Source of the DNA: Bacteroidales bacterium
Lineage (GTDB): Bacteria; Bacteroidota; Bacteroidia; Bacteroidales; JAQXIO01
DNA length: 64,000 bases
NCBI GenBank assembly: GCA_029007825.1
Contig: JAQXIO010000062.1
Location: 1,252 to 65,251, forward strand
Direction of reading: 5' to 3'
Under the pieces are notes generated by a model. That model was not told the DNA's origin and made no database searches. It worked only from the letters and a program-made list of their open reading frames with translations. Shown here in pieces: positions 339 through 43,039 of the stretch; the first letter of the stretch is position 1, and every line of letters begins with the position of its first letter. The position numbers and the translations under genes were made by a program.

Positions 339-1270
339 TTAGAGGCTTTTATTTATTATTGTAAGGTTTTTCCCGAAATATACAGATAGGACCCTGCCTT
401 GCAGCTGGTCTCTCTGTATAGTGCCGAAGATGCGGCTGTCGGGGGCATTGTCGCGGTTGTCTCCTAATAAATAATAGGAGTTTTCAGGAATAGGAATGTT
501 TTTAAATGCTTCGTCATTCTGAAAGGGCGGAGTTTTACATCTTAAAATCTTATATTTAAATCCATTCGGGAGGATTTCGTTCAGTTCTTTCATTTCATAT
601 CCTTCATTCGTGAATGTGGATATGATTTTGTGGCGTGATTTTTTATTTTTGAACTTAACCAATCTGTTTTCTATGCTTAGCGTGTCTTTTGGCATTCCAA
701 CTATCCGGCAAGCATATTTTTCTCCGTTGGTTGTGAAGATTATTACCATATCTCCATAGTCCGGTTTCTGGAAATGATAAAAACCATAGTCGATCAGAAT
801 GTAGTCGCCTATACGAGTATTCGGGAGTCCGGACCATGAGCTTACCTGGGCTATGTTGTAGCGTGAGTGCTCTCCAATGTTTTCAGAGGCAGGGCGGATA
901 AAAATATACCAAGCTGCTATTATGATTGCGTAGACGTACCATTTGTTATAGTTTTTATCTGGTATTGTTTATTGCGGCGTGCTGCCAGAATGGCGTCGAC
1001 AATGCTCCATGTAAAGAGTATGCCCAGTAGTATCAATGAAATAGTGTATGTCCAAAAATAGGCTTTGATTCCGAGTAGGTTGACTCCGACCGAATAGGTT
1101 AGTAATCCCAAAGAAAAGATTAGGGCTTTTTTGATTTGTCCGTTGTAGAGTTGCCCTAATCCGGGAACTAATATTGCAAGTACGAATGCCAGTACTGTTT
1201 CTCTTGGCGTGTATTTGATTATATCTTCGATTTCTTTTTCGTCGATGATTTCCATATCACTGTTTTCCAT
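339..1270 (-). pseudogene. S26 signal peptidase I-like gene split into two frames (N-terminal multi-TM part 920-1270; peptidase part open 339-968)
   Basis: The downstream frame carries SPase I boxes: VSSWSGLPNT (compare SGSMEPTL), YACRIVGMPKDT (compare KRxxGLPGD) and GDNRDNAPDSRIFG. This frame is open from 968 but has no ATG/GTG/TTG before 749. The upstream ORF (PGLGQLYNGQ, 3 TM helices) overlaps it in another frame. One extra A in the A5 run (coding strand; 952-956 on plus) would fuse the two. Confidence 0.5.
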
Positions 1271-1349
1271 AAATTGAGTGTCTTAGTCTTGAATTGATAT
1301 TGCTCTACTGGTTTTTGACCAGAATATATTTGAGTAGGGCAGTTTGTGT

Positions 1350-2117
1350 TTATATCCGAAGAAAATCCAAAATTTTAAATATTTGTTCTACTTTTATCAT
1401 TTTTACATCACCGTTTTTTTCATCTATTTGGAATGTTATCATTCTGACCCCGTATTTTCTTATAAGGTATTCATTAGTTTTGAATTTATATTTTAATAGA
1501 AATTTATTTCCTTCAAAGTTTTCAATAAAGGATTCAAAGCAACATCTGTCTTTTTGTGTTGTGATATTTTGTATTTTCCACAGGGTGTTGTTTTCGACAA
1601 AATATCTATCTAATACGATTGTTTTTGTTTCGTTTGTTTGGATATTTTTAATAATTAGTTTGTCGGAATCATGTGAAGATCCTGTTTTAAGAATCAAAAA
1701 TTTGCCCAACTTTACGATTTGTTCGTCTTTTTCCCATTCACGCCCATTGTAGGTACCGCCTTCAAAATCGATTGTATCTCCGCTGGCATTGATATATGTG
1801 TAATTGATAAAAAAATCATAAGAGCGAAGATCTACAAAATAAGAGGAGTTGCAGAGCAGTTTTCCTCCAATTTTTTGTTCAATTACGGTCGTTTCAAATT
1901 TTGGTTCATATGTGTTGGAGTTTGGGATCGCTCGGATTCCAAGAGTAATCATTCCAAGTGTGCATAATATGAAGAGGAGGAGTCCGATGTTTTTAAGTGT
2001 CTTTCCTTTTTTCTTTAAATGCTTGTAAAGTAAAAAGAACAAAAAGGGAGGGATTGAAAGAATAATTATGCCCGTTAAAATTAAGAATCCGATGTAAATG
2101 TATATAGTTGCGTCCAT
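1350..2117 (-). CDS. hypothetical membrane-anchored protein
   Basis: 255-aa ORF with two N-terminal TM helices in a visibly AT-rich context. I recognise no family motif. Confidence 0.5.
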   Translation of the reverse strand: MDATIYIYIGFLILTGIIILSIPPFLFFLLYKHLKKKGKTLKNIGLLLFILCTLGMITLGIRAIPNSNTYEPKFETTVIEQKIGGKLLCNSSYFVDLRSYDFFINYTYINASGDTIDFEGGTYNGREWEKDEQIVKLGKFLILKTGSSHDSDKLIIKNIQTNETKTIVLDRYFVENNTLWKIQNITTQKDRCCFESFIENFEGNKFLLKYKFKTNEYLIRKYGVRMITFQIDEKNGDVKMIKVEQIFKILDFLRI

Positions 2118-2421
2118 GTTTTATTTTAGGCAATCGTTAAGCTGATACTTAAGATGTACAGATTATATTTCGAGCTGTAAATTTTTTTCTGGGGAGTTTC
2201 TCAACTATCAGTTTTTATTTCAAAAAAGAAGAGTAAAAACAGCAAAGAGAATAGTATATTTTTCATAGTTTTTTTGTTTAACCAAAGGAGGTTATGCTAT
2301 TTTCTGACGATATATTGTGCCTATTTGTCTTTTGTTTTCATGGCGGATTTAAAATTATTTAAATTTCTTATAAATGCAAATATCAGCCATCTGTAAAGAA
2401 ACAAATGGCTGATATTATGTG

Positions 2422-2494
2422 AGCGGCAAGCGAGACTCGAACTCGTGACCCTCAGCTTGGGAAGCTGATGCTCTACCAACTGAGCTACTGCCGC
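2422..2494 (-). tRNA. tRNA-Gly (anticodon CCC)
   Basis: The reverse complement folds as a cloverleaf: GCGGCAG/TA/GCTC-AGTTGGTA-GAGC/A/TCAGC-TTCCCAA-GCTGA/GGGTC/ACGAG-TTCGAGT-CTCGC/TTGCCGC/T. The anticodon loop is TTCCCAA. U73 with the C2-G71 and G3-C70 pairs fits Gly identity. No CCA is encoded. Confidence 0.85.
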
Positions 2495-2503
2495 ATTGCG
2501 GTG

Positions 2504-2534
2504 CAAATGTACGCATTTGTCGTTATTGTGCAAA
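2504..2534 (-). promoter_or_regulatory. Bacteroides-type promoter for tRNA-Gly (TTTG-N19-TACATTTG)
   Basis: The minus strand reads TTTG (2534-2531), a 19-nt spacer, then TACATTTG (2511-2504), 9 nt upstream of the mature tRNA 5' end. Confidence 0.55.
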
Positions 2535-2821
2535 TTTTCTTTTGTGAAAAATACAGGGGGATTACAGGTTTCCGGGTGTTTGCGGGGGATGGTATTTTTC
2601 CGGTATTTAGCTGACGGGGTATCGGGGTTTTACTGAAGGGTTATTCTGGAGTGGCGCTTTGAGGGAAGGTTCTGACCGTGTGATGGTGTCGTTTTTGTTT
2701 TGTTTATATAATGTTGTTAGATTGGGAGCCGGAGTGTTTGTGTGTGTACGAGTTGAGGTCTTAATTTATCTGTTGTAGTGGGGAGGGGATGAGTGTGTGT
2801 TAGAAGAGGGGGCCGGTTGGT

Positions 2822-3421
2822 TTATTTAAAGCAGTTGTAGTCTCCTTTATCGGCGAAGCGGATCATTTCTTTGTCGCCTTTGCTGTCGCCGTAGGCTATG
2901 AGGGTGTATTCGCCGCGTTGAGGGAATGCTTGTAGTATGCGGTTTACTTTTTCTTGTCCATAACAGTTTTTTGTCCGGAATTTTCCGGTGAGCTTTCCGT
3001 TTTTGTCTACTTCGAGTTGGGTGGCGAGAATATTTTTGATGCCTATGCTTTGTGCCCATGGCTTTATCCAGTTTTGGGGGGAGGCGCTGACGATTGCTAT
3101 GGTTGCGTTTTGTTGTTGGTATTTCCGTATGGTTTCTATTGCGGCGGGACGTACCATGGTGTCTATTTTTCCGGTAAAGTTTTTTCCCCATTCGTCGAAT
3201 CGGGCGAGACTTATGCCTTTGTAGAGGTGTGTAAAGAGTATTTGTTTTGCTTTCCAGTTGGGGATGAGTTTCAGTTTTAGGGCTATGAGTACGGGGAATA
3301 TAAAAAGGATGGCGAATGCGGCACGGAGGTTTCCTTTGCTGAAGCGGATAAATTCGGGCAGGGTGTCTTTTGTCGTGATTGTGCCGTCGAAGTCGAAAAC
3401 GACTATTGTTTTTTTCTTCAT
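2822..3421 (-). CDS. HAD-IB family hydrolase (phosphoserine-phosphatase-like)
   Basis: N-terminal FDFDGTIT (HAD motif I) and C-terminal GDSKGD (motif IV). 199 aa. Confidence 0.8.
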   Translation of the reverse strand: MKKKTIVVFDFDGTITTKDTLPEFIRFSKGNLRAAFAILFIFPVLIALKLKLIPNWKAKQILFTHLYKGISLARFDEWGKNFTGKIDTMVRPAAIETIRKYQQQNATIAIVSASPQNWIKPWAQSIGIKNILATQLEVDKNGKLTGKFRTKNCYGQEKVNRILQAFPQRGEYTLIAYGDSKGDKEMIRFADKGDYNCFK

Positions 3422-3839
3422 TTCGTTTTAACGGAAGGGGTTATTTATGCGGAGCCGTTGTCTGGTGTCCGTTTTTTGTTTTACAAATATATGCTTTTTT
3501 ATTTGTCCGGAGATTCTTCCGGTGTTGTTACTAATAGAAGAAACCAACCCTGCGTTTTATTTAAAAGAGATTATGCGTTGCAGTTTTTTAATTTGTTTAC
3601 GTATTTAAGGAATTATTTTACGAAAACCGGTATTGTACAGCCGAATTTTTCTGGTGCGACTACATCTTTTCGAGGGGATATGTGTTTATATAATACATCT
3701 GTCGTATTTATTTGCGCAGACCGTATGTGGGAGGGTCGGTATTTTTTATGTGGCGGAAAATGTTCCTGTATTTGCGGTTCCTGCGGATTGATTATTGAGA
3801 TAAACATACATTTATTGATTAATTAAAACAGAAAAGAAA

Positions 3840-4403
3840 ATGAAGAAGATTGTATTATTGTTACTGGTTATGGTTGCTGCGTTTTCAGTAAATGCTCAAC
3901 AGTCAAAAATTGCCCAGGAGAAGCCTAACTTGCGCCGGGTTTATGTGGGTGGCGCTTTTTCTTTGTGGCATGATAAGGATATAGACCGGACAACATTCCA
4001 GATTGCGCCGGAAGTGGGTTACAATTTCAATGAGAAATGGGCTTTGGGTGTTTCGATCGGTTACGGCCATTATAAGACTGGTGACGAGAAGGCGAATGCT
4101 TTCGGTCTGACGCCTTATGTTCGTTTTACTTATTTCCGTACGGGTATGGTACGTCTTTTTGCTGACGGTAATATCGGCTTTTCTACTTATAAGGTAAAGG
4201 GTGCCGATGCTACGAACGGTTTTCTGATCGGTATACGTCCGGGTATTGCCGTGGATTTGACGAAAAACCTGTATATTCTTGCGAGATACGGTTTTCTGGG
4301 TTATTGCGACGATTATGCTATGCTGGGAGGGAGCACCCAGAGTATCGGAGGGTTGAATTTCGATATGACAACTCTTAATTTTGGTATTAACTATCAGTTT
4401 TGA
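3840..4403 (+). CDS. small outer-membrane beta-barrel protein
   Basis: Signal peptide MKKIVLLLLVMVAAFSVNAQ, alternating amphipathic strands rich in G/Y, and a C-terminal ...NYQF aromatic terminus. Confidence 0.75.
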   Translation: MKKIVLLLLVMVAAFSVNAQQSKIAQEKPNLRRVYVGGAFSLWHDKDIDRTTFQIAPEVGYNFNEKWALGVSIGYGHYKTGDEKANAFGLTPYVRFTYFRTGMVRLFADGNIGFSTYKVKGADATNGFLIGIRPGIAVDLTKNLYILARYGFLGYCDDYAMLGGSTQSIGGLNFDMTTLNFGINYQF

Positions 4404-4430
4404 TTTAACGGTATCGTTACCGATATGGGG

Positions 4431-4461
4431 GGCCTGCCTTTTATAGGGGCAGGCTTTTTTG
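4431..4461 (+). terminator. rho-independent terminator
   Basis: GCCTGCC (4432-4438) pairs with GGCAGGC (4448-4454), followed by T6. Confidence 0.6.
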
Positions 4462-4623
4462 TATTTGTCAAAGATGGATTTGAATTGATGATGGTTGTGG
4501 GGCTTTCTATTTTGACCGCGGGGCTGTGAAGTTAAAAAAAGAGGAAGTTTTTGTGATTTGCAGAATAATAATTTTCTTTGTGTAGAGAGTATTATGGAGT
4601 CAGAATTTAAAAGGGTAGCAGTT

Positions 4624-4998
4624 ATGAAGAAATATGTTTCAACGAATCATGCTCCGGCGGCGGTTGGACCTTACAGCCAAGCTGTGAAGTGGGGCGATGT
4701 TCTTTATTTGTCGGGACAAATCGGTATCGATCCGGCTACGCAGCAGCTTGAGGAGGGTTTAGAGGCTCAGACCAAGCGTTGTTTTACCAATGTAAAGGCT
4801 ATTTTATCGGGGGAGGGATATAGTTTTGCGGATATCGTAAAGGTGACGGTTTATCTTACGGATATGGATGATTTTATTCTTGTTAACGAGTTGTATGCTT
4901 CTTTTCTGGAATCTCCTTTTCCTGCGCGTTCGTGCGTAGCGGTTTCGGCTTTGCCTAAGGGTGCTTCGGTAGAGATTGAAGTAATCGCTGCAAAATGA
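4624..4998 (+). CDS. ridA: RidA/YjgF family reactive-intermediate deaminase
   Basis: APAAVGPYSQAV...LYLSGQIGIDP...VKVTVYLTDM...RSCVAVSALPKGASVEIE is a typical YjgF/RidA sequence. The start is placed at the internal MKKYVS because the family is ~125 aa. Confidence 0.85.
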   Translation: MKKYVSTNHAPAAVGPYSQAVKWGDVLYLSGQIGIDPATQQLEEGLEAQTKRCFTNVKAILSGEGYSFADIVKVTVYLTDMDDFILVNELYASFLESPFPARSCVAVSALPKGASVEIEVIAAK

Positions 4999-6182
4999 GA
5001 CAATACAGGTATGCTCCAATGACGAGCCGGAAGCGTTCGGGGCTTCTCTTGATCGTTTTATCGGCGGCTCTTCTTGCCGTGTACGTGGGGATTCCGTGTT
5101 ATGTGCGGATGGCATTGCTTTACTGGTATCCGAATATCGATGATATGAGTATTTTCCCGTCGCGGCGTGTTTCTGCGGGGATACCACAGCCATGGCCTAC
5201 CGATCCGGAAGCGCCTTTTACTACTATACCGGATAAGTACAGGGGGGATTTCGAGAAGTACAAGACGGTTGCTTTTGTGGTGGTACGGGATAGTGCTCTT
5301 TTATTTGAGGGGTATTGGAATGCGTACAGTGATACGTCGTATTCGAATACTTTTTCTATGTCGAAGAGTGTTGTTTCGTTGTTGACGGGTTGTGCGCTGG
5401 AGGATGGTTTTATAAGGAGCCTTGACCAACCGGTGCGCGATTTTATACCTGAGTATCCGGAGAGTAACCGGTTTTCTCCGCTTACTTTACGGCATTTGCT
5501 GACGATGAGTGCGGGGATCGATTATGACGAGAGTTATGCTTCGCTTTTTTCAAAAACGACGGAGGTTTATTACGGTGACGATTTGTTGGCGTCTGCTTTG
5601 AATATGCCGCAGGCGGAGGAACCGGGAAGGTGTTTCAAATACCAGAGCGGTGCGACGTTGTTGCTTTCGATTGCGTTGTCGCGTGCGGTGGGTATGCCAG
5701 TATCGGAGTATTTTTCAGAAAAGATATGGGCGCCTATCGGGGCTGAGCACGATGCGTACTGGAGCTTGGATCGTGATAACGGTTATGAGAAGGCGTATTG
5801 TTGTATTTATTCGAATGCGCGGGATTACGCGCGTTTGGGGCAGTTGCTTCTGAACAGGGGGCGATGGGGGGATCGCCAGTTGGTGCCGGAGGATTATATT
5901 GATGAGATGACAACTCCGGACAAGGGATTGGTGCAGTGGTTCGACGAGAGGCCTAACCGGGTGTATGGTTATCAGTTGTGGCTGACTTCTTTCCGGGGAC
6001 ACCGGGTTTTTATGTTTCAGGGGATTATGGGACAGTATATTTTAGCTGTGCCTGACCTGAACGCTGTTATCGTCCGGTTGGGTGAGGCGAACGATAAGGA
6101 GTATACGCCGGATCATTTTCATACGGATGTGTTGACGTGGCTGGGTGCCGGATTCGATATTATCGAGGGGAACGACGAGTGA
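4995..6182 (+). CDS. serine hydrolase, beta-lactamase/transpeptidase-like family
   Basis: S-x-x-K motif (FSMSKSV), an N-terminal TM anchor, and an ATGA overlap with the ridA stop. Confidence 0.8.
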   Translation: MRQYRYAPMTSRKRSGLLLIVLSAALLAVYVGIPCYVRMALLYWYPNIDDMSIFPSRRVSAGIPQPWPTDPEAPFTTIPDKYRGDFEKYKTVAFVVVRDSALLFEGYWNAYSDTSYSNTFSMSKSVVSLLTGCALEDGFIRSLDQPVRDFIPEYPESNRFSPLTLRHLLTMSAGIDYDESYASLFSKTTEVYYGDDLLASALNMPQAEEPGRCFKYQSGATLLLSIALSRAVGMPVSEYFSEKIWAPIGAEHDAYWSLDRDNGYEKAYCCIYSNARDYARLGQLLLNRGRWGDRQLVPEDYIDEMTTPDKGLVQWFDERPNRVYGYQLWLTSFRGHRVFMFQGIMGQYILAVPDLNAVIVRLGEANDKEYTPDHFHTDVLTWLGAGFDIIEGNDE

Positions 6183-6211
6183 TTTACCGTATTTTATCTC
6201 ATTAGCCGGGA

Positions 6212-6991
6212 ATGAAAAGGGGAGAGGGTTTTGCGGAGGTTAAGGTTTTGCTGGATTCGATGGCTGAGCGCTTTAATTGTCCTGCGTTTGCCGAGTCTGA
6301 CCCTGTGTGTTTTCCCCGGCGTTACCATTTGAAACAGGATATTGAGGTTTCCGCTTTCCTGACGGCTGTTATTTCGTGGGGGAAGCGGAGTATTATATTG
6401 AGTTCTGCGCGTAAGATGCATGACCTGATGGGTGCTTCGCCTTATGATTTTATTATGGGGCGTGGGTATGAGCGGTTGGGGTGCGCGAATATTCACCGTA
6501 CTTTTTTTGAGGATGACATGGCTTTTATCTGCCGTGGGTTGCATGCTGTTTACAGTCGTTTCGATTCGTGTGAAAGTGTGTTTGCCGACCTGGAGTTTAC
6601 TCCTGACCGATTGTGGTGGGGGATTGTGCGGTTGCGGTCGTATATCGAGGATGCGAACGGTGTGCGGGGTTCTAAATGTTTGCGGCATATCTCCAATCCG
6701 GAGCGGTTTTCGGCGTGTAAGCGGTTGCATCTTGCATTGCGTTGGTTGGTGCGTAGGGATGGTATTGTGGACCTGGGAATCTGGCGGGGTTTGTCTCCAT
6801 CGGAGCTAAAGATTCCGTTGGATGTGCATGTGGGAAGTACGGCGCGCCGATTGGGTTTATTGGAGAGGAAGCAGAACGACCGGAGGGCTGTCGACGAACT
6901 GACGGAGGTGTTGCGGTCTTTTTGTCCGGAGGATCCTATCCGTTATGATTTTGCGTTGTTCGGAATCGGGGAGGGGAAAATTGAGCTGTGA
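6212..6991 (+). CDS. TIGR02757/DUF2400-like family protein
   Basis: Recognised by overall resemblance only (FPRRY..., VSAFLTAVISWGKR, C-terminal DFALFGIGEG). Its last 14 codons and stop lie inside the direct repeat at 6945-6995. Confidence 0.55.
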   Translation: MKRGEGFAEVKVLLDSMAERFNCPAFAESDPVCFPRRYHLKQDIEVSAFLTAVISWGKRSIILSSARKMHDLMGASPYDFIMGRGYERLGCANIHRTFFEDDMAFICRGLHAVYSRFDSCESVFADLEFTPDRLWWGIVRLRSYIEDANGVRGSKCLRHISNPERFSACKRLHLALRWLVRRDGIVDLGIWRGLSPSELKIPLDVHVGSTARRLGLLERKQNDRRAVDELTEVLRSFCPEDPIRYDFALFGIGEGKIEL

Positions 6992-6995
6992 GTTT
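6945..6995 (+). repeat. direct repeat, left copy (3' end of the TIGR02757-like gene)
   Basis: atgattttgcgttgttcggaatcggggaggggaaaattgagctgtgagttt matches 14307-14357 at 48 of 51 positions. Confidence 0.9.
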
Positions 6996-7809
6996 ATCAA
7001 GATTTTTCAGAAGATAATAAAAAGGTTTTGTTTCGGGTTTTCCCGGAGTTTTATTGATTTCAACGGTGGTCTCTTTCGGGATTCAAGGTTCCACCGGATA
7101 TGATGCATCTGCAAGTGCAGCTTATCAATGGCTATATTAGCGAAATTCTATCAGGGATAAGTCTGTGGCCTTTTCTGTGCGGGTGCCAAATTCTCAATTG
7201 TCGAATTATAAATACAGAACTTTGTTTTCAGGGCGTGAGGCTTCTATTTGTGCCATAAAGTATGATCGATATTTTTCGGACATAGGGGTTAGGTGCAAAA
7301 GATGAATGTATATCGATTTCATTGCTATAGAGGGTGCAAAGTTCTCAGTTATCTCTTTTTTCAAATCGTGTAAGGATGAATATCCGTATTTTATTGCTTG
7401 ATGTTGTTGCCGTGAGGTGTCGACATTGCCGGGATGGCCGGAGTTCAAACACATTGCAGGATATGTATATGCTCTATAGATAACAGTTCATGTTCGGGAA
7501 CTATGGTCTGGGGGCATTTTGTTGAAGTTACGACATTTTCAGTTGTGAGTGTATGAAAATAGTACTCGGCCGGTAAAGATGAGAATGGTATATAGAAAAT
7601 GTCAAAAAACAATATTTTGGACGAGCGCTGTTCTGTAATTTTTTTGTTTATCATCAACGATGCTCTATGTATGAAGCTGTTTTGACAATATTTTGCTCTG
7701 TATTTGCTTTCTTTTTTGGTGTGTCAAAATAGTACATTTGGATCGAAATTTTCGTTGCAAACCGGCAGCGTGTTGAATGCTAACTCCAAAATTTTAATAA
7801 TCAATATTT

Positions 7810-10683
7810 ATGAGAAAGAAACTACTATTCATCGGATTTGCTTTATCTGTCATTTTTAATAGTGAGGCGTCGCCGACCGTTGCTGACCACTCTTCTTTAA
7901 TCTTTAAGGATAAGGTATTCAATGATTATTTGTCTTCCTGGATTGCAAATGAAGGGGGTACCCAGCGGCGTCATGTTCCGCATACGATGTCTGCAATGTT
8001 CGTACAACAAAATGGTCTTGTGGCAACGATTTGCGGATGGGATGAAGGGGGAACGAACGTTGCCGTATATAATAAAGGTGAAATTATCAGTGTTCCGGAG
8101 GGTTCCGGAACCGGAGGTTGGGGGCGTATGTCGGGATGTGCTGTCGTATTGGACGAGGAGTATACTTATCAATTGCTTACACAGCATGGTTGCGACTCTC
8201 CTAATCCCAATCCCAATGGGAACGGATTGCCACAGTATCCAATCTGTGACGATGAAGTGCTGTGGCATACAATAAGACGGTATGATATCCAAACGGGAAA
8301 GTCAGCTCCGTTTTCATCGGGCTACGGCTATAAGGGAGATATGTTGTTAGTTGCGGAGGAGTCTGCGCGTGAGATGGTGGGCTTGGCTATTACATCGAAG
8401 GAGTTGTATGTTGCCGTAGCCGGAAAGGAATCGGGCATGCCCGATTCGATAAAGGTTTACAGTAAATTGACGATGAGCAGTAAGCCAGTTCGCGCATTTG
8501 AGATTGCGGGCGGGGTAGGCTATTTGAGCGCGGATGCAAAGAGAGGATTGTGGATGCGCCAAAATAATAAGATCGTTCGTTTATCGCAGATCGACGGTAC
8601 TCCGATGGGACAGGAGATCGTTATACCGGAAGGAGTTGTGACGCAATCGTTCAATGTCGATCTGGAAGGAGAACGTTTGTTGCTGGCTAATAGCGGCCGG
8701 GATTTGAACGTTCTTATTTACGGTAATATCTATAGTGTACCTGAACTTAGCGGGACTTTCGGAGTTAAAGGCGGTTATCTCTCTACGGAAGGCGGTTATA
8801 AGAAGGGTGCGGCCGGGCCACTGCGTTTCTGTGGTCCTCAGGGTGCCGGGGTTGACGGGAGCGGCAATATTTATGTTTGCAATACTTTCGTAGGCGGCAA
8901 CGGTGCGGTACTTGAAGCGTACACTCCGGAAAAAGAGCTGTTGTGGAAAACGGAAGGATTGGTCTTTACTGCGGTAGCGGACTTTGACCGGTCAGATGCA
9001 GAGACGGCTTATATTCCTGATAAACTTTTCAAAATCGATATGAGGAAAGCGGGTCATCGGGTGGATGAGCTAATCGCTTATACTGTCGATCCTTTTACAT
9101 ATCCGGACGATGAAAGGACTCCTGGACACTCATTTATAACATCAACCTTTAAAAGAACGATCAACGGACAAAGTTTTCTTTTTGTTTCTGACATGTACGG
9201 AGGAATTCTTGAGGGGTATCGTTATACGGAAGAGGACGGTTATATCGGGATTCCTTTTTTGCAAGTGAGCAATGGGGGCAGTAGCGGAGTTATTCGTATG
9301 TGGATAGACGATAATGCTAACGGACAAAAGGAAGATGACGAGTGGCGTGAAATTGCAGAGACTAATGGATACAGTATGTCCTTTTTCCCGGACAAACAGG
9401 GAAATATCTGGCGAGGAAGCCGGGAACAAGGCTTTACTTTGTGGAAGGTCGGAGGGAATAATTCTCTCGGGATTCCCCAATATGCGGAGGGTGTTCATTA
9501 TGCTCTACCCAAAGGAACGAATGGTGTAAAACGTATCTATTATCTACCGGAGAGGGATGAGCTTTTCCTGGCCGGCTTTTCACAAGAGAAGCCCGATTCT
9601 GGAGATACGTGGTGGGCTTTGGGCTCGACTGTAGCCAAGTATACCAAGGCGATGGAACGTATAGAAAAAGGAGAGGATGTTTCGACATGGGAACCGGATC
9701 TGCTTCTTTATATTCCTTTCGAGGCCAATGATGAAACCGGTATAGATGCCAAAGCGATGGCGGTGGAAGATAATCTGATATTTTTTTCAATGGCCAGAAA
9801 TGGGGCTATTACGGTTTATAATACCGAGAGCGGGGAGTTTTTAGGAACACTCAGTCCCGGTGATGAGTTGGGAAGGCAGAGCGGATGGTCGGATTTTAAT
9901 TATTGCATCAATGCAAAAAAGAATGAGGACGGTTCTTACTTTGTATTCAATGAAGAGAACGGTTTTGCAAAAGTCGTTCTATACGATCTTTACGGCTTTT
10001 CGACGGAAAAGAGGCTTCAGGGCGATTTGAAGCCAACTGAATTTTCTTTTGTGGATGCAGAAGGAGGGTCGTATTCTATAGATGCGTTGCCTGTTGATAA
10101 ACCGATTTATCCAGTTATAGGGGTACTGAACAGATGGAAAGGTGATGTAACGCAATACAATCGTTTACTGGAGGCGCGGTGCATTGCCGAATTTCGTTTG
10201 GTCGATAGAGAGACGGGTGAAGAGCTTTACCGATCGTATTCGGAAGCTTATAAGCAAGATATAGCCCCATCGGAGGAAATTGACAGAAAAGCCCAAGAAC
10301 CATTTACTCTTTCATCAGGTGGCAATTATATTTTAGTTGCTGATGTAAATTATGGACCGACTGGAAAAGATATGAATATGAATAACAACGTTTTGGAGGT
10401 GGAGCTCGGTGCGTCTACCGCTATAGAGCAAACGGATTCTTCATTGTCTTTGCAGCTTTATCCGAATCCTACTTCGGGCCATTTGGTAATACAAGGGGCT
10501 TCTGTCCGGCCGAATTCTCAGATTAAAATATCGAGTCTGGACGGTACATTATTATTATCTCAAGTCATTGCGACAGAAGGATGCGTTAGCCTCGATGTTT
10601 CTTTTTTGCCACAGGGTATTTATCTTTTGCAGATTTTTGCAGATTCGAGGTTTGTACAGTGGCAAAAGCTTATCATTCAATAA
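7810..10683 (+). CDS. large secreted protein of unknown function with T9SS C-terminal sorting domain
   Basis: 957 aa with a signal peptide and one NHL-like segment (GPQGAGVDGSGNIYVCNTF). The C-terminus, LYPNPTSGHLVIQG...GIYLLQI...KLIIQ, is a typical type-A T9SS CTD. Confidence 0.8.
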   Translation: MRKKLLFIGFALSVIFNSEASPTVADHSSLIFKDKVFNDYLSSWIANEGGTQRRHVPHTMSAMFVQQNGLVATICGWDEGGTNVAVYNKGEIISVPEGSGTGGWGRMSGCAVVLDEEYTYQLLTQHGCDSPNPNPNGNGLPQYPICDDEVLWHTIRRYDIQTGKSAPFSSGYGYKGDMLLVAEESAREMVGLAITSKELYVAVAGKESGMPDSIKVYSKLTMSSKPVRAFEIAGGVGYLSADAKRGLWMRQNNKIVRLSQIDGTPMGQEIVIPEGVVTQSFNVDLEGERLLLANSGRDLNVLIYGNIYSVPELSGTFGVKGGYLSTEGGYKKGAAGPLRFCGPQGAGVDGSGNIYVCNTFVGGNGAVLEAYTPEKELLWKTEGLVFTAVADFDRSDAETAYIPDKLFKIDMRKAGHRVDELIAYTVDPFTYPDDERTPGHSFITSTFKRTINGQSFLFVSDMYGGILEGYRYTEEDGYIGIPFLQVSNGGSSGVIRMWIDDNANGQKEDDEWREIAETNGYSMSFFPDKQGNIWRGSREQGFTLWKVGGNNSLGIPQYAEGVHYALPKGTNGVKRIYYLPERDELFLAGFSQEKPDSGDTWWALGSTVAKYTKAMERIEKGEDVSTWEPDLLLYIPFEANDETGIDAKAMAVEDNLIFFSMARNGAITVYNTESGEFLGTLSPGDELGRQSGWSDFNYCINAKKNEDGSYFVFNEENGFAKVVLYDLYGFSTEKRLQGDLKPTEFSFVDAEGGSYSIDALPVDKPIYPVIGVLNRWKGDVTQYNRLLEARCIAEFRLVDRETGEELYRSYSEAYKQDIAPSEEIDRKAQEPFTLSSGGNYILVADVNYGPTGKDMNMNNNVLEVELGASTAIEQTDSSLSLQLYPNPTSGHLVIQGASVRPNSQIKISSLDGTLLLSQVIATEGCVSLDVSFLPQGIYLLQIFADSRFVQWQKLIIQ

Positions 10684-10732
10684 TTAATGCGCAATTGAAT
10701 TCTGTTTTTATTATAAACCAAATTAGTATACT

Positions 10733-13700
10733 ATGAAAAATGTTGTTTTTAGCCACGTACTGAGGGGATTGATGCTCTTTATTGCATTAAGTGGCTTTAT
10801 GAGCTTGTCTGCTCAATTAAGTAAAACCGTAGTTTCGGAGAAAGGAAAGTTGAAAGAGGCTTTGGAGCTTTCCTTGTCGGAAGGCGAAACACTGGATCAG
10901 ATTACGGAACTTACGATTACCGGAGAGTTGGACGGGCGCGATAGTTATAGCGACACTGAGGAGCTTCTGCCGGATTATACAAAAGATTTCGAAACTGTTC
11001 GATTATTGTTGATAAATTTGGAAAGGCTCGATCTATCCGGGGTAACTGCAATTTATGATGGTGAAAACAATCTTGCAGGTATCCCGTGGAGAGCTTTTTC
11101 TTATTTGAAAAAAGATCAGACGAAGCCGAACGAAAAGCTCAAAACCGTGGTATTGCCAACGACTATCCAGAAGTTGGGCGGTGATGCTTTCTGGGATTGC
11201 CGGGCTTTGGAGGAAATCAATTTTCCTGCAACATTGACCGATGTACCTCAGGGTTGTTTTACTAATTGTTACAGTTTGAAAAGTTTCAATGTCGATCCGG
11301 AGAATGCGAGATTTGCTTCTGAAAACGGGGTTTTGTACAGTAAGGATATGAAGGCGTTGTATGCTTTGCCATATGCTTGGGCTGAAACGGAATATAATAT
11401 GCCGGCTACTATCGAAAAAATCGAATGGGAGAGAGCTTTGGTTTCATCCAATGTTAAACATATCGGTTTATCGGCTTCAGTTTCTATTAATGACGATAAG
11501 CGTATTTTTCAGTATTTGGAAGGTTCCGATAATCTTGAATCGATTACGGTTCCGGAAGAGAATGTGAATTTTCGTTCAATAGACGGCGTTCTTTTCAATG
11601 CCGATATGACGGAGTTGTTGTTTTATCCGGCGGCAAAAGCCGATCGTTATTATTGTGTGCCTGAGGGTATTATTAATTTGGGTGGGGCTGCTTTTGCAAA
11701 TTCGAAAAATCTATTGATGGTGGATTTGCCTTCGACGTATGTTCAAAATAAGACTTCATGGCAGGATGAAAGACAATTTTTCAATTCCAGTATCGAATCG
11801 ATTACGCTTCCGAAATCTCTTCAGAATATGAACTGGGGATTTCTTCGCGGTTGCAAGAATCTAAAACAGGTTATTTGTTTAGGAGATGTTCCTGTAAATG
11901 CGTCTCCTAATGTGCGCGAGGTATTTTGGGACAGTAAGATTGGGCGAATAGTTGTTCCGGTAGGTTCTCTCGAAGCGTATGAAACGGCTTGGGAGGCAGG
12001 TTCGGATGCTCCTACGGCGAATAAATTCGTAGAGGCAACGATTGTAGATTCTCCTAATGGAGAGTTAGCTTCGATTTTAGGAGAATCGGCGGCTTCAATA
12101 GAGGAATTACTCATTACGGGTGATATGATTGCTGCTGATTATTTTTTCATGCGGGATGGAATGACGGCATTGAAAAAAGTCGATTTGTATGCTGCAAGAA
12201 CCCTTGCTTCACAGATTACTACGACGAACGGCGATCAACCGCAAACGGAAAGTTATGATGGGGATGCCATACCTCAGGGTGCTTTTAATAAGAACGGTTC
12301 TATTGAGTCTGTCGTATTGCCGATGACAACAAAAGTTATTCAGTGGAATACTTTTGATGAGATGGCTAAATTATCAAGTGTTTCGATGTCTGTTTATGTA
12401 AATGGAAATATCAACCCATCAGCATTTGTCGGCTCTCTTCAGTTAAAGGAAATTATTTTAGACTCACGAAATCTTTCTTTACTTGTGGATAATGGGGTTT
12501 TGTATTCAAAGAATAAGGAGACCTTGTATATTTATCCACCGGCTAAGGAGGAGGAGTCTTACACGATGCTTCCGGAGACAAAGGTGTTAAGGGAGAATGC
12601 TATCAGGGATGCTGCGGCTTTGAAGAGTATAACTTTTTCTCCTGTTTTAGAAAAGATCGAGAATAGATCTCTTGCTAATATGGATGGAATCGTTAGATTG
12701 GATTTGCCGTCAACAGTTTCAGATATCGCTATTTGGGGAATAGAACTGATGAATTTGGCAGAAATAAATATCGAAGAGGGCGGAGTTTTTAAATCTGTTG
12801 AGGGGGTATTGTATACTGCAAACGGTAAAGAGCTTGTGAAGTATCCGAGGGCTAAGACTGATAAACACTTTGTTTTTCCCGATGGACTTGAAAGGCTTCG
12901 TCGGGAGTCAGCTGGACGGACTCTTTATTTGGAGTCGGTTATTGTTCCAGAAGGTGTAACTTTCATGGACGAGGCGATCTTTATAGCATCGACTTCATTG
13001 AAGAGTATTATTCTTCCTTCTACCTTGGATACGGCTCTTTGGGGACTTTGCCGCGAATCAAGAAAGTTGGAGCAATTGATTATTAAGGCAGAAAAAGCAC
13101 CGGTGTCTAAAACACATTCCAATGAGTTGTTCTGGGATACTCCTAATACAGCGTGGTTAGGGGTATCAAGCCAAACTGCCGTGGAGAATTATAAGAAAAC
13201 GGAAGATGAAAACGATATAGCGTATGATCCTGATAACAAAGGTTGGACATTCTGGTTGCGGGAGAATCGGCAACCGATCATTTACCATACCGTGACGGTT
13301 GAGAATGCGTCTTCTCCTTATCCGCTTGCGAATGAGAAAGTGAAAGTTCCTATCTATGCTCCTTTACAAAATGAAAATGGAGAATATTTCTCTATGTGGG
13401 ACGCTGATGCCGATATCGTTATCCGCGACAAGGCGGCAAATGAAACTTATTTTCAAATGCCGAACAGGGATGCAGTCGTAAAGGCGATCTATAAGAAAGG
13501 ATATAATATTGTTGTTGAGAATGGAACGGCTGTAAAAGAGATTGCAACTGAGGGTGAGTCAATTTCTATCGAGGCCGGAACGGTAGCCGGACAACAATTT
13601 TATCGTTGGGAAGCAGATGGGGTTACTTTTGCAGATCCGTATGCAGCAAAAACAACGTTTACTATGATTGCTTCAGACGTTACGATCAAAGCTGTGTTTA

Positions 13701-14155
13701 AAACGCCTTATGGTATTATGGTAGAAGGTGGTGTAGCTTATAAGTCTCAAGCTGTTGAAGGGCAAGTCGTAGAGATTAGCGCCGATGAGCCTGAAGTGGG
13801 TTATGTGTTTGATAAATGGGAATCTGAAGATGTCGTTTTTGCCGATGCAACGAATCCTGAAACATCGTTTACTATGGTGGGTAAAGACGTTTCTATCGTT
13901 GCTAAATTCAAAAGAGACGATACGGCGATTGACGATGTTGACGGTGCATCAGTAAATCTTTATCCTAATCCTGCTTCGGATTATATTATTGTCACGGGGT
14001 TGGTAGAGGGGCAGCCTTATGCTATCTACAACAATGCGGGCGTATTGTGCATACAGGGTACGATTACGGGAGCGCCTATAGATGTTCAAATATTACCTGC
14101 GGGTTCAGAATATATTTTCGTTAGTGGTGTGAAGGTACTTCAATTCATGAAGTAG
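10733..14155 (+). CDS. BspA-type leucine-rich-repeat surface protein with Listeria-Bacteroides repeats and T9SS C-terminal sorting domain
   Basis: 1140 aa with a signal peptide. It has many ~23-25-aa LRR units of the BspA kind (IP..AF..C..L..I.LP..L..I). The C-terminus is LYPNPASDYIIVTGL.... Confidence 0.85.
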   Translation: MKNVVFSHVLRGLMLFIALSGFMSLSAQLSKTVVSEKGKLKEALELSLSEGETLDQITELTITGELDGRDSYSDTEELLPDYTKDFETVRLLLINLERLDLSGVTAIYDGENNLAGIPWRAFSYLKKDQTKPNEKLKTVVLPTTIQKLGGDAFWDCRALEEINFPATLTDVPQGCFTNCYSLKSFNVDPENARFASENGVLYSKDMKALYALPYAWAETEYNMPATIEKIEWERALVSSNVKHIGLSASVSINDDKRIFQYLEGSDNLESITVPEENVNFRSIDGVLFNADMTELLFYPAAKADRYYCVPEGIINLGGAAFANSKNLLMVDLPSTYVQNKTSWQDERQFFNSSIESITLPKSLQNMNWGFLRGCKNLKQVICLGDVPVNASPNVREVFWDSKIGRIVVPVGSLEAYETAWEAGSDAPTANKFVEATIVDSPNGELASILGESAASIEELLITGDMIAADYFFMRDGMTALKKVDLYAARTLASQITTTNGDQPQTESYDGDAIPQGAFNKNGSIESVVLPMTTKVIQWNTFDEMAKLSSVSMSVYVNGNINPSAFVGSLQLKEIILDSRNLSLLVDNGVLYSKNKETLYIYPPAKEEESYTMLPETKVLRENAIRDAAALKSITFSPVLEKIENRSLANMDGIVRLDLPSTVSDIAIWGIELMNLAEINIEEGGVFKSVEGVLYTANGKELVKYPRAKTDKHFVFPDGLERLRRESAGRTLYLESVIVPEGVTFMDEAIFIASTSLKSIILPSTLDTALWGLCRESRKLEQLIIKAEKAPVSKTHSNELFWDTPNTAWLGVSSQTAVENYKKTEDENDIAYDPDNKGWTFWLRENRQPIIYHTVTVENASSPYPLANEKVKVPIYAPLQNENGEYFSMWDADADIVIRDKAANETYFQMPNRDAVVKAIYKKGYNIVVENGTAVKEIATEGESISIEAGTVAGQQFYRWEADGVTFADPYAAKTTFTMIASDVTIKAVFKTPYGIMVEGGVAYKSQAVEGQVVEISADEPEVGYVFDKWESEDVVFADATNPETSFTMVGKDVSIVAKFKRDDTAIDDVDGASVNLYPNPASDYIIVTGLVEGQPYAIYNNAGVLCIQGTITGAPIDVQILPAGSEYIFVSGVKVLQFMK
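13283..13918 (+). repeat. three tandem ~70-aa protein repeats (Listeria-Bacteroides / InlB B-repeat-like) inside the LRR protein
   Basis: The units start YHTVTVEN..., YNIVVENG... and YGIMVEGG.... Each ends in the pattern F..W......FAD....T.FTM....V.I.A.FK. Confidence 0.6.
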
Positions 14156-14184
14156 ATTTTTTATTTTTAGTTAGTTGTGTATGT

Positions 14185-14225
14185 AAATCCGCTTGAAGTG
14201 TTTATACTCTTCAAGCGGATTTTTT
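14185..14225 (+). terminator. rho-independent terminator
   Basis: 14-bp perfect stem, aaatccgcttgaag / cttcaagcggattt, followed by a T-run. It sits 30 nt after the LRR gene stop. Confidence 0.85.
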
Positions 14226-14306
14226 CATTTTTTAGTATGAACCAGGTCGTGGATTGCGAACGGTAAGTCGTTTTAGTAGTCAGTATGGTCATGTTGTGTT
14301 TGTTCC

Positions 14307-14357
14307 ATGATTTTGCGTTGTTCGGAATCGGGATGGGGAAAATAGAGCTGTGAGTTT
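14307..14357 (+). repeat. direct repeat, right copy (orphan duplicate of the TIGR02757-like gene 3' end)
   Basis: atgattttgcgttgttcggaatcgggatggggaaaatagagctgtgagttt would encode [14 protein letters not shown]. Similarity stops sharply on both sides. Confidence 0.9.
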
Positions 14358-14537
14358 GGTGGGTGGCGAACGGATGCGAACAGCGGTTTGCGGGAGGTTG
14401 TTCCGGTTTTTAATGGTTGTTTGTGCGATTTGGCGTGTAAATATCCTTCGGGTCAGAAGATTATTTGTTATTTTTGCACATTATTTTGCAGCGGGCTTGC
14501 GCTGTGTTTGTACGGTAATGATCTAACGATATATAGA

Positions 14538-17156
14538 ATGAAGATTGCGAGTAAATATAATCCTGCCGAGGTAGAGGGCAAGTGGTATCAGTATTGGTTG
14601 GATAACGGTTTTTTCAAATCGAAGCCTGACGGTCGTGAGCCGTACACAATCGTTATTCCGCCTCCTAATGTGACGGGTGTATTGCATATGGGGCATATGC
14701 TTAACAATACGATTCAGGATATTTTAGTGCGTCGTGCACGTATGCAGGGAAAGAATGCCTGCTGGGTGCCGGGTACGGATCATGCTTCGATTGCTACGGA
14801 GGCTAAGGTTGTGAACCGACTGGCTCAAAAGGGTATCAAGAAGGCCGATCTGACACGTGAAGAATTTATGGAACATGCGTGGGAGTGGAAGGAGGAGCAC
14901 GGTGGTATTATATTGAGGCAGCTTCGTAAGCTGGGTGCTTCATGTGACTGGGACCGTACCGCTTTTACTATGGATGAGCTGCGATCGGAGAGTGTTATCA
15001 AGGTTTTTGTTGATTTGTTCAATAAGGGGCTTATTTACCGCGGGGTGCGTATGGTAAACTGGGATCCGAAGGCTTTGACGGCATTGTCGGATGAGGAGGT
15101 TATCTATAAAGAGGAGCATAGCAAGTTGTTTTACCTGCGTTATAAGATCGAAGGTGAGGATGGTTATGCGATCGTGGCTACGACGCGTCCGGAGACGATT
15201 ATGGGGGATACGGCTATGTGTATCAATCCGAACGATCCGAAGAACCAGCATTTGAAGGGTAAGAGGGTTATCGTTCCGCTTGTGGGATGGGTGATTCCGG
15301 TTATAGAGGACGATTATGTGGATATCGAGTTCGGTACGGGTTGCCTGAAGGTTACGCCTGCCCATGATGTAAACGACTATATGCTGGGTGAGAAGTATCA
15401 TTTGCCGAGTATCGATATTTTCAATGATAACGGTACGATCAGCGAGGCTGCGGGTTTGTACGTGGGTATGGACCGTTTCGATGTGCGTAAACAGATCGAG
15501 GGTGATTTGAAGGAGGCCGGTCTTTTGGAGAAGGTCGAGGCTTATGAGAATAAGGTGGGTTACTCGGAACGTACGAATGTGCCTATCGAGCCGAAGTTGT
15601 CTATGCAGTGGTTCCTGAAGATGGAGCATTTGGCTGAGATTGCTTTGGAGCCGGTGATGAAGGATGAGCTTAAGTTTTATCCGCATAAGTTCAAGAATAC
15701 GTACCGTCACTGGATGGAGAATATCAAGGATTGGTGTATCAGCCGCCAGCTTTGGTGGGGACACCGTATTCCTGCTTATTTCCTGCCGGAGGGCGGTTAT
15801 GTGGTAGCGGAGACGCCGGAGACGGCTCTGGTGCTGGCGAAGGAGAAAACGGGTAATGCTGCTTTGACGATGGCTGATTTGCGTCAGGACGAGGATGTAT
15901 TGGATACGTGGTTTTCTTCGTGGTTGTGGCCTATTTCGTTGTTTAACGGTATCAATGAGCCGGATAATGAGGAGATCAGTTATTATTATCCGACAAACGA
16001 TTTGGTGACGGGACCGGATATTATTTTCTTCTGGGTGGCGCGTATGATTATGGCGGGTTATGAATTCAGGGGTGAGATGCCGTTCCGGAACGTTTATTTT
16101 ACAGGTATTGTGCGTGATAAGTTAGGGCGTAAGATGTCCAAGTCGTTAGGTAATTCTCCCGATCCGCTGAATTTGATCGAGCAGTATGGTGCGGACGGTG
16201 TCCGTATGGGTATTATGATGGCTGCTCCGGCGGGTAACGATGTGCTTTTCGACGATGCGCTCTGTGAACAGGGTCGTAATTTCAATAATAAGATATGGAA
16301 TGCTTTCCGTCTTGTAAAGGGCTGGGAGGTGAGCGAAGATATTGCGCAGCCGGAGGCGTCGGCTTTGGCTGTGAAGTGGTTCGATGCGCAGTTGTGCAAG
16401 ACGGTTGCGGAGGTGGACGATCTTTTCAGCAAATACCGTCTGAGCGAGGCTATGATGGCTATCTACAAACTTTTCTGGGATGAGTTTTCGTCGTGGTATT
16501 TAGAGTTGGTGAAGCCGGCTTACCAACAGCCTATCGATGCGGTAACGTATCGTGCTACTTTAGGTTATTTCGATGCTTTGCTCAGGTTGCTGCATCCGTT
16601 TATGCCGTTTATTACGGAGGAGTTGTGGCAGGATTTGGAGGAACGTAAACCGGGCGAGAGTATTATGATTGCGCGGATGCCTGAGGCTAAGGCTGCCGAT
16701 TCCCGGCTTTTATCTGATTTTGAACGGGTGAAAGAGGTAATTGCGGGAGTGCGTTCGGTACGTTTGCAAAAGAATATCCCAAATAAAGAGTCTCTCGATC
16801 TTGAGGTGTTCGGTGCGCATGACAGGGCGTTTGACGGGGTGATCGGGAAGATGTGTAATTTGTCTTCTATCAAGAGCGTAACGGAGAAGAGTGCGGGTGC
16901 GGTTTCTTTCCTTGTGGGGACAACGGAGTATGCTGTTCCTATGAGCGGAAATATCGATGTGGAGGAGGAGTTGAAAAAGTTGCGTGACGAGTTGGCTTAT
17001 CAACAGGGTTTTCTGCAATCGGTATTAAAGAAGTTGAGTAATGAGGCGTTTGTGAATAAGGCTCCGGCGAAGGTTATCGATATGGAGCGCAAGAAGCAGG
17101 CTGATGCGGAGAGTAAGATCAGATCGCTCGAGGAGGCTATTGCGTCTCTTTCTTAA
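14538..17156 (+). CDS. valS: valine--tRNA ligase
   Basis: HMGH and KMSKS class-I signatures, an N-terminus [20 protein letters not shown], and a C-terminal coiled coil. The start is placed at ATG 14538 rather than the TTG of the ORF track. Confidence 0.95.
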
Positions 17157-40666: not shown

Positions 40667-40728
40667 TGTTTGTGTGAATCGGATTGCCGAAACGGTGGAT
40701 TCCAGGTGATTCGACGAAATATGATAAT

Positions 40729-40766
40729 AAGGAAGGTTGTTCTGAAAGAACAACCTTCCTTATTTT
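40729..40766. terminator. bidirectional terminator shared by the two convergent B12-regulated units
   Basis: aaggaaggttgttc-tgaa-agaacaaccttcctt, flanked by A/T runs. Confidence 0.8.
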
Positions 40767-40796
40767 GCTGGATATTGTATTTCTAAAATATATCTT

Positions 40797-41918: not shown

Positions 41919-41924
41919 ATCTGT

Positions 41925-43028: not shown

Positions 43029-43039
43029 AACGGGTGTAT

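Follow-up and report, generated by a model that had tools for sequence, protein, structure and literature searches.

Insertion with long target duplication describes genomic units of less than 20 kb that carry no mobile-element genes and are bounded by target duplications of more than 30 bp (Furuta et al. 2010, PMC2853133; the original report is Nobusato et al. 2000, Gene 259:99, as cited in PMC2853133). In published examples, 46-bp repeats lie over the 3′ end of a gene (15 bp of HI0105) with identities of 45/46, 45/46, and 44/46, and all described cases carry restriction-modification (RM) genes, the authors tying the mechanism to RM DNA breakage (PMC2853133). The locus analyzed here lies in a 64,000-nucleotide stretch of an uncultured Bacteroidales bacterium (GenBank assembly GCA_029007825.1, contig JAQXIO010000062.1, positions 1,252 to 65,251), referred to below as the window. 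In it, a block of 7,311 bp (6996-14306) separates a gene of the DUF2400/TIGR02757 family from valS, the gene for valine--tRNA ligase, and is bounded by a 51-nt direct repeat of the DUF2400 3′ end. Between the repeat copies lie a 640-nt left arm, a two-gene cassette, and a 68-nt right arm. Like the published units, the block is smaller than 20 kb and is absent from a close relative, L163, to which its flanks align at 95.2-95.7%; its repeat is longer than 30 bp and single copy in L163, with identities of 47/51, 46/51, and 48/51; and it contains no mobile-element genes, only two genes for surface proteins. Unlike them, it carries as cargo not RM genes but genes for beta-propeller and BspA-type leucine-rich repeat (LRR) proteins of the type IX secretion system (T9SS). 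The locus offers a clean gain of surface-protein genes in an uncultured lineage, with a filled and an empty allele in hand and no mobility gene.

Analysis of the repeat showed two copies, both on the plus strand: R1 at 6945-6995 and R2 at 14307-14357. A first-pass annotation of the window had placed a 48/51 repeat at these positions, and the repeat search returned the same coordinates and the same identity (51 nt, 94%), with only two matches in the window. A 49-nt repeat pattern with up to 3 mismatches likewise occurred in 2 places only in the 64 kb and in none of 100 dinucleotide-preserving shuffles. R1 holds the last 14 codons of the DUF2400 gene, its stop codon, and GTTT, and R2 is a non-coding relic of the same 3′ end, situated 80 nt past the terminator of cargo gene 2 and 180 nt before the valS start. 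One copy encodes DFALFGIGEGKIEL* and the other a 14-residue variant, the R2 relic having an E-to-M change. The longest perfect run common to R1 and R2 is 26 nt. In a three-way alignment of R1, R2, and L163, similarity breaks off sharply on either side of both copies, as the annotation had also described.

Comparison with L163 provides the evidence that the block is an insertion. L163 is a 5,178-bp Logan contig from SRR26188688 and represents a relative that is ∼95.6% DNA-identical to the window. The window DUF2400 protein and a neighboring beta-lactamase-fold protein have one cluster mate each at at least 90% identity, and both of these mates are encoded on L163. By blastn, L163 1-4305 corresponds to window 2682-6995 (95.67% identity) and L163 4255-5178 corresponds to window 14307-15230 (95.24% identity), and what the two segments have in common is L163 4255-4305, precisely the 51 nt of the repeat. 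The intact DUF2400 gene of L163 leads through one repeat copy into the native intergenic region and then valS, and the 7,311 bp at 6996-14306 are absent. An empty site of this form had been predicted, and its presence in a relative had been named beforehand as an outcome that would support insertion. The window and L163 diverge by 2-6% in coding sequence and by 10% in the intergenic sequence to the right of R2; a homologous tract imported beside the junction was considered and rejected because divergence is uniform up to the junction. Judged from the assembled sequences, these alignments establish block 6996-14306 as a genuine insertion that varies between strains and has a 51-nt duplication at its borders.

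The single copy in L163 (E, the empty-site copy) also allowed the differences between R1 and R2 to be placed. R1 is identical to E at 47 of the 51 positions and R2 at 46. At repeat positions 26 (G in R1 and R2, T in E), 36 (A, A, and G), and 42 (C, C, and T), it is E that stands apart, and on this alignment the three changes are ordinary lineage divergence private to L163. The remaining differences distinguish R1 from R2: positions 27-28 read GA in R1 and E and AT in R2, and position 38 reads T in R1 and A in R2 and E. At the three R1/R2-variable positions, E is R1-like on the left and R2-like on the right. This pattern fits one crossover between positions 29 and 37, in either integration or excision, and it also fits an ancestral E with one later change in each copy; an assembly path switch is a less plausible source. 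Chance by itself would yield such an order in one case out of two, and with two informative events, a crossover is favored by at most two to one.

Both sequences are metagenome assemblies, and it is conceivable that the duplicate in the window is chimeric or that the L163 assembly jumped between repeat copies, in which case a path switch could produce the R1-left, R2-right appearance of E. Such an artefact is very improbable. The copies in the window differ at 3 positions, and the 26-nt run that they share is shorter than common assembly k-mer sizes. L163 is collinear with the window on either side of the block and diverges from it uniformly, and the L163 repeat has its private substitutions at 26, 36, and 42. 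Furthermore, no protein from SRR26188688 is present among the homologues of cargo gene 1, whose best match (85%) comes from another sample, and clustering of ∼15 billion proteins at 90% identity leaves each cargo protein on its own. Since no cargo-like protein comes from the SRR26188688 sample, the L163 relative does lack the block, and a collapsed-repeat assembly is unlikely.

More distant relatives were examined in 160 loci fetched from GTDB species genomes, 80 containing DUF2400 and 80 containing valS. The closest DUF2400 protein in these loci is 63% identical at the amino acid level (63-67% for the best one outside the lineage of the window and L163) and the closest valS product is 84% identical, and these species were therefore rejected as empty-site references because they are too distant. 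DUF2400 is adjacent to valS in none of the 160 loci; the sole DUF2400-like match in the valS loci (38% identity) is on the opposite strand ∼8 kb upstream of valS, in L118. Two metagenomic contigs with the most closely related valS (L165 and L166, 92-93% amino acid identity over the N-terminal 290 residues) also have no DUF2400 upstream of it. The adjacency of DUF2400 and valS appears, from these comparisons, to be private to the lineage of the window and L163. In L166, valS is split into two adjacent open reading frames (ORFs; 720-3342), and in L165 the called valS is only 470 amino acids (aa) long (10001-11413); both are probably assembly frameshifts.

The same relatives show that the repeat covers a lineage-specific, fast-evolving tail of the protein (GKIEL* plus the 4 non-coding nt). 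The tail following the conserved YDFALFGIG motif differs in 80 of 80 relatives, which means that the last ∼25 nt of the repeat, including the 4 non-coding nt, are lineage specific. None of the 80 related loci has the DUF2400 3′ end duplicated within 10 kb, by blastn-short or by peptide motif. No integrase downstream of DUF2400 was present among the 25 most frequent of the 50 matched neighbor families, which cover 40 of the 80 loci. The literature search found no paper on TIGR02757/DUF2400 as an integration target and no mention of the sample accessions. When genome, metagenome, and viral collections were scanned with an exact 23-mer of the repeat core, the only matches were two Chryseobacterium DUF2400 genes, and there was no viral match. 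In these (L161 and L162), the exact match to the window extends over 28 nt (6944-6971) and the DUF2400 proteins are 44% identical. The 23- and 28-nt matches were rejected as a shared element and ascribed to chance codon identity in the conserved YDFALFGIG motif; the case shows that short exact-match scans can mislead.

The cargo has a separate history. Cargo gene 1 has a single close homologue, P0127, which is carried by an 11-kb ENA contig (L164) and is 85% identical at the amino acid level. L164 2185-8621 and window 7792-14225 are 80.1% identical in nucleotide sequence, and sensitive local alignment extends the homology to window 7636-14238 and L164 2037-8631, that is, from the upstream region through the terminator. 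In L164, another T9SS gene lies upstream of the cassette and pnp lies downstream on the other strand, with no DUF2400, valS, or mobility gene at the locus, and neither the 640-nt nor the 68-nt arm is present beside the cassette there. GC content at third codon positions (GC3) is 0.29 for the L164 pnp gene and 0.43 and 0.38 for the two cassette genes in the window, compared to 0.50-0.59 for window core genes and 0.52-0.73 for valS of the nearest relatives. The identity of 80% over 6.6 kb between dissimilar genomes, together with the absence in L163 and the deviant GC3, indicates that the cargo is foreign, and the cassette is best explained, at the level of sequence comparison, as horizontally acquired from a low-GC Bacteroidales lineage. 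It was not found in GTDB genomes or in plasmid or phage collections. The arms look like donor chromosomal flank and not like obligatory element ends.

These findings can be accommodated by an insertion with long target duplication that happened once and without a recombinase, the 51 nt being the recipient's own target sequence, and this explanation is tentatively preferred, with a probability just short of even. A foreign fragment consisting of the two-gene T9SS cassette and 640 nt and 68 nt of donor flank would have entered the DUF2400/valS boundary. Its joints to the chromosome would have been made 51 nt apart, through either a staggered break or two offset illegitimate joints, and subsequent fill-in would have placed the DUF2400 end (last 14 codons, stop codon, and the next 4 nt) at each edge of the insert. 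The left copy would keep DUF2400 intact, the right copy would be a dead relic, and the native valS terminator/promoter region would stay untouched. At the filled site, DUF2400 does retain its full-length ORF and the 180-nt region upstream of valS is undisturbed, so the insertion would have been harmless to both neighbors. The neatness of this outcome may be explained by survivorship, in that any such duplication leaves the upstream gene intact. The cassette would then be expressed from its own signals, adding two adhesin-like surface proteins to the repertoire of the strain, and the 51-nt repeats, with their 26-nt perfect run, could let RecA delete the block precisely. We infer both the origin of the two copies from the target and the manner of breakage and repair. 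Derivation of both copies from the recipient target is the simplest assumption because the repeat includes a lineage-specific tail and the cargo donor is distant. An insertion of this kind is favored because features of attachment (att) sites are missing, the tail is private to the lineage, the arms do not accompany the cassette elsewhere, and there is published precedent; an att/recombinase origin is somewhat less likely.

Such an origin has to be weighed against what is known of integrated elements and their relics. In tyrosine-recombinase genomic islands, prophages, and integrative and conjugative elements (ICEs), as at this locus, the 3′ end of the target gene is duplicated, the gene remains intact, a relic of it lies at the far end, and the site is empty in a relative. 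A cis-mobilizable element (CIME) is a decayed ICE or integrative and mobilizable element (IME) that keeps attL and attR, and CIMEs form a recognized class that has lost the integration and transfer genes (PMC5704250). The block resembles a CIME in lying between direct repeats at the 3′ end of a protein gene without integration or transfer genes. The main alternative is that the block is a decayed or trans-mobilized, CIME-like element whose attP mimics the DUF2400 3′ end, with R1 as attL and R2 as attR, and whose tyrosine or serine recombinase and mobility genes were later lost or were never aboard and acted in trans. This is a possibility of some substance, yet a doubtful one. The textbook footprint of such elements is a repeat of tens of base pairs over a gene 3′ end, together with a restored gene and an exact empty site, all of which are seen here. 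A single crossover at positions 29-37 would fit, with R1 composed of host sequence on the left and element sequence on the right and R2 of element sequence on the left and host sequence on the right. The 640 nt of orphan DNA are at the gene-proximal end, the usual position of an integrase gene; mobile elements, too, typically show a low GC3 like that of the cargo; and the view is limited to 64 kb of the genome.

However, every tested positive signature of a site-specific system was absent, which is the reason to doubt an att reading. The first-pass annotation had recognized no integrase, transposase, or tRNA in the block, and this held up in domain searches of ORFs and of six-frame translations. 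No recombinase or transposase (Phage_integrase, Resolvase) was detected in the ORFs of the block or in any ORF of at least 150 aa across the 64 kb, no recombinase remnant was detected in six-frame translations of 6992-7812, and there is no tRNA inside the block. In contrast to tyrosine-recombinase islands, prophages, and ICEs, the block contains no integrase, excisionase, or other element gene and has no att substructure. In an attP reconstructed as right arm, repeat, and left arm, no 10- to 12-mers were repeated, as arm-type sites would be, and repeated 9-mers did not exceed shuffle levels. A search of the repeat for an inverted-repeat core (arms of 6-12 nt, spacer of 4-10 nt) gave nothing beyond shuffles, terminal inverted repeats of the block scored at the null level, and no direct repeats were found at the cassette edges. 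CIMEs are recognized by residual ICE/IME homology and by cognate elements sharing the att site in related strains. Here, the arms have no residual ICE/IME homology or any other homologue, the block has no match in plasmid or phage collections, and no cognate element uses this target in the 80 related genomes. The L164 cassette occurs without these arms and without mobility genes. Finally, an attP that is 48/51 identical to a lineage-specific tail, together with cargo from a distant low-GC lineage, needs extra steps. Of the annotation's proposal that the repeats are attL/attR-like and mark replacement of the gene end, insertion at the gene 3′ end is borne out by L163, whereas the replacement end supposedly brought in by the incoming DNA is conjectural, and both copies may simply duplicate the target. 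Its fallback, that the cargo was moved by a mechanism not encoded locally, is fully compatible with the results.

A crossover need not be site specific. In a Campbell-type event, RecA would have integrated, by a single crossover, a circle carrying the cassette and a stretch of ∼51 nt captured earlier from a DUF2400 3′ end, either within the lineage or in a sister lineage. The locus has precisely the structure that insertion-duplication through one crossover would leave, site-specific features are not required, and the 26-nt perfect run and the repeat differences fit one exchange. On the other hand, this route needs a prior, unobserved capture that placed the DUF2400 end between the arms on a circle, and 51 nt at 94% identity are a very poor RecA substrate. 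No such circle or plasmid was found, and the uniform divergence from L163 up to the junction leaves no sign of an imported tract. RecA-mediated integration is therefore considered unlikely.

Several points also weigh against the preferred recombinase-independent insertion. First, only one empty-site relative is available, and an insertion in the window lineage and a precise loss in L163 both fit, although under either polarity some insertion creating the duplication must have occurred. Second, elements with a tyrosine integrase classically leave such a footprint too, a direct repeat over a gene 3′ end. Third, the R2-specific change at positions 27-28 lies to the left of the R1-specific change at position 38, as a single crossover at 29-37 predicts. 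Fourth, no source sequence for the 640-nt and 68-nt arms was found, and their origin as donor flank is what we infer. Fifth, only 64 kb of the genome is in view, which leaves room for a recombinase acting in trans. Finally, insertions with long target duplication are documented systematically only for RM cargo (PMC2853133). The block contains no RM gene.

The block was also compared with two other known kinds of mobile DNA. Transposons and insertion sequences have terminal inverted repeats, a transposase, and a short target duplication (2-14 bp). The block differs in each respect, having a terminal inverted repeat score at the null level, no transposase, and a duplication of 51 nt. Integrative mobile elements exploiting Xer (IMEX) and dif modules are moved by the host XerC/XerD recombinases, and a dif site consists of two ∼11-bp inverted arms with a 6-bp spacer. 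Like these, the block holds cargo without its own recombinase and is flanked by short direct repeats. Unlike them, it shows no dif-like palindrome by eye and nothing beyond shuffles in the inverted-arm scan, and its site is the 3′ end of a gene. The site is not a replication terminus, since GC skew is strongly positive across it. If the recombinase-independent insertion is the true account, long target duplication extends beyond RM cargo and into the Bacteroidales, and this would point to a widely available way for foreign DNA to establish itself at gene ends without harm; if the block is an att relic, it is one more decayed island. Under either account, strains differ in the adhesin-like surface proteins, of the beta-propeller and LRR kinds, that they secrete through the T9SS.

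The contents of the block agree with the annotation, which had described a gene-poor stretch of ∼0.8 kb, two large T9SS genes, and a strong terminator; domain searches and folding confirmed all three. The left arm (6996-7635; 640 nt, GC content of 0.39) is non-coding. It has no homologue in any sequence fetched, a blastn search against the window and all loci returning only the arm itself. No credible ORF, no Pfam match in six frames, and no Rfam family were found in 6996-7809, apart from one sub-threshold chance match to Rfam. A hairpin at 7030-7049 was considered as a replacement terminator for DUF2400 and rejected because it is no better than shuffles. The segment at 7636-7809 (plus strand) is the upstream region of the cassette, probably a promoter/leader, and is partly conserved with L164: local alignment pairs a stretch of ∼80 nt, window 7636-7716, with L164 2037-2117 and contains the conserved block CTGTTTTGACA.T.TTTTGCTC. 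The cassette ends in an intrinsic terminator at 14185-14232 (plus strand), in which the hairpin AATCCGCTTGAAG...CTTCAAGCGGATT is followed by a T-run. This hairpin is conserved in L164 and has a folding free energy (dG) of -22.7 kcal/mol (z = -7.98), with 0 of 200 shuffles folding as well. With its own upstream region and its own strong terminator, the cassette appears to be transcriptionally self-contained. The right arm (14239-14306; 68 nt) also returns only itself by blastn, homology to L164 stopping at 14238.

The product of cargo gene 1 (7810-10683, plus strand) is 957 aa long; a signal peptide precedes a body of tandem beta-propellers, and the C terminus is formed by a T9SS type-A sorting domain (Por_Secre_tail, PF18962/TIGR04183, residues 883-957). 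Its AlphaFold model has an all-beta body and a mean pLDDT (predicted local distance difference test) score of 87.6, and the best fold matches are tandem beta-propellers, for example, the BT4673 ectodomain (3va6/3ott). Cargo gene 2 (10733-14155, plus strand) encodes a 1140-aa BspA-type LRR protein with InlB B-repeat domains and a T9SS C-terminal domain (LRR_5, E = 4e-38; Flg_new_2, E = 5e-25). The C terminus of this protein carries an LYPNPASD motif and matches the C-terminal domains of cargo gene 1 and of PDB 7pzj. Judged from their domains, the two proteins are probably T9SS-secreted, cell-surface proteins of binding or adhesin type. Homologues of the cargo gene 1 beta-propeller body (P0131-P0200) place it in a family that is unannotated and widespread in Bacteroidales. 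Versions of ∼740 aa without the C-terminal sorting domain occur in Parabacteroides and Alistipes, and in versions of ∼1,600 aa the body is fused to LRR_5, Flg_new_2, and the C-terminal sorting domain, which amounts to both cargo genes in one protein. Among more distant homologues, the pair of a beta-propeller gene and an LRR gene, each with a C-terminal sorting domain, recurs as a unit in Bacteroidales, sometimes as one fused 1,600-aa protein.

In L164, the cassette is flanked by a direct repeat of ∼120-140 nt (1911-2052 and 8511-8631). It consists of the last ∼44 nt of the LRR gene and the terminator hairpin, and the upstream copy is a relic situated 30 nt past the stop codon of an unrelated gene. 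This repeat is probably a turnover scar in a tandem array of such cassettes. Alternatively, recombinase-free T9SS adhesin gene pairs might constitute a family that is inserted at gene 3′ ends by a host or trans-acting recombinase, with a cassette-borne gene end serving as a minimal attP and the L164 repeat as a second instance; a family of this sort is improbable. A cluster encoding DUF4465 and DUF5074 proteins and a TonB-dependent receptor (window 39623-45067) recurs in a metagenome contig, L167 (1-5319), beside a distant homologue of the cassette; in the window, a protein with a C-terminal sorting domain is part of the cluster as well. The recurrence is a hint that the TonB-receptor cluster and surface systems of the cassette type are functionally associated.

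The host flanks are well defined. The DUF2400/TIGR02757 target gene (6212-6991, plus strand) is intact, encodes 259 aa, and has its last 47 nt inside R1; the ORF matches PF09674 (DUF2400) with an E value of 7e-70 and TIGR02757 at 189.6 bits, compared to a cutoff of 139.2, and its L163 orthologue (P0121) is also 259 aa long. The native DUF2400-valS intergenic region follows R2 at 14358-14537 (plus strand) and is 93.8% identical over 177 nt to L163 4309-4485, which is directly 3′ of the single repeat copy there. valS, the right host flank (14538-17156, plus strand), matches NCBIfam PRK05729 at 1132 bits. Its start, set by tblastn with relatives, is at 14538, 180 nt downstream of R2 and not right after the second copy as the annotation had it.

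Some other features of the window lie outside the block. GC skew over window positions 1-24000 is uniformly positive (∼+0.14 to +0.38 in 1-kb windows), which is unusually high, and shows no sign change at the insertion; a strong positive skew probably holds for the whole window. A stretch at 18465-24340 is AT-rich (GC content of 0.28-0.39), with gene GC3 of 0.20-0.39 for all ORFs but one, and starts where tRNA-Thr(CGT) (18391-18464) ends. The only one of its ORFs with a Pfam match encodes a small T9SS C-terminal-domain protein (21793-22728). The stretch has the look of a further foreign island, but a direct repeat of the tRNA 3′ end was not found at 18.5-24 kb, nor was an integrase. A second Logan contig from the same relative as L163 (L169, 94-96% identity) has, in its region 318-2496, ∼1.4 kb of extra DNA compared to window 22824-24340. 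This extra DNA contains two ORFs of ∼197 aa that, by size and position only, are apparent tandem paralogues of window 23717-24274, and the difference from the window would then be one of copy number within a tandem family.

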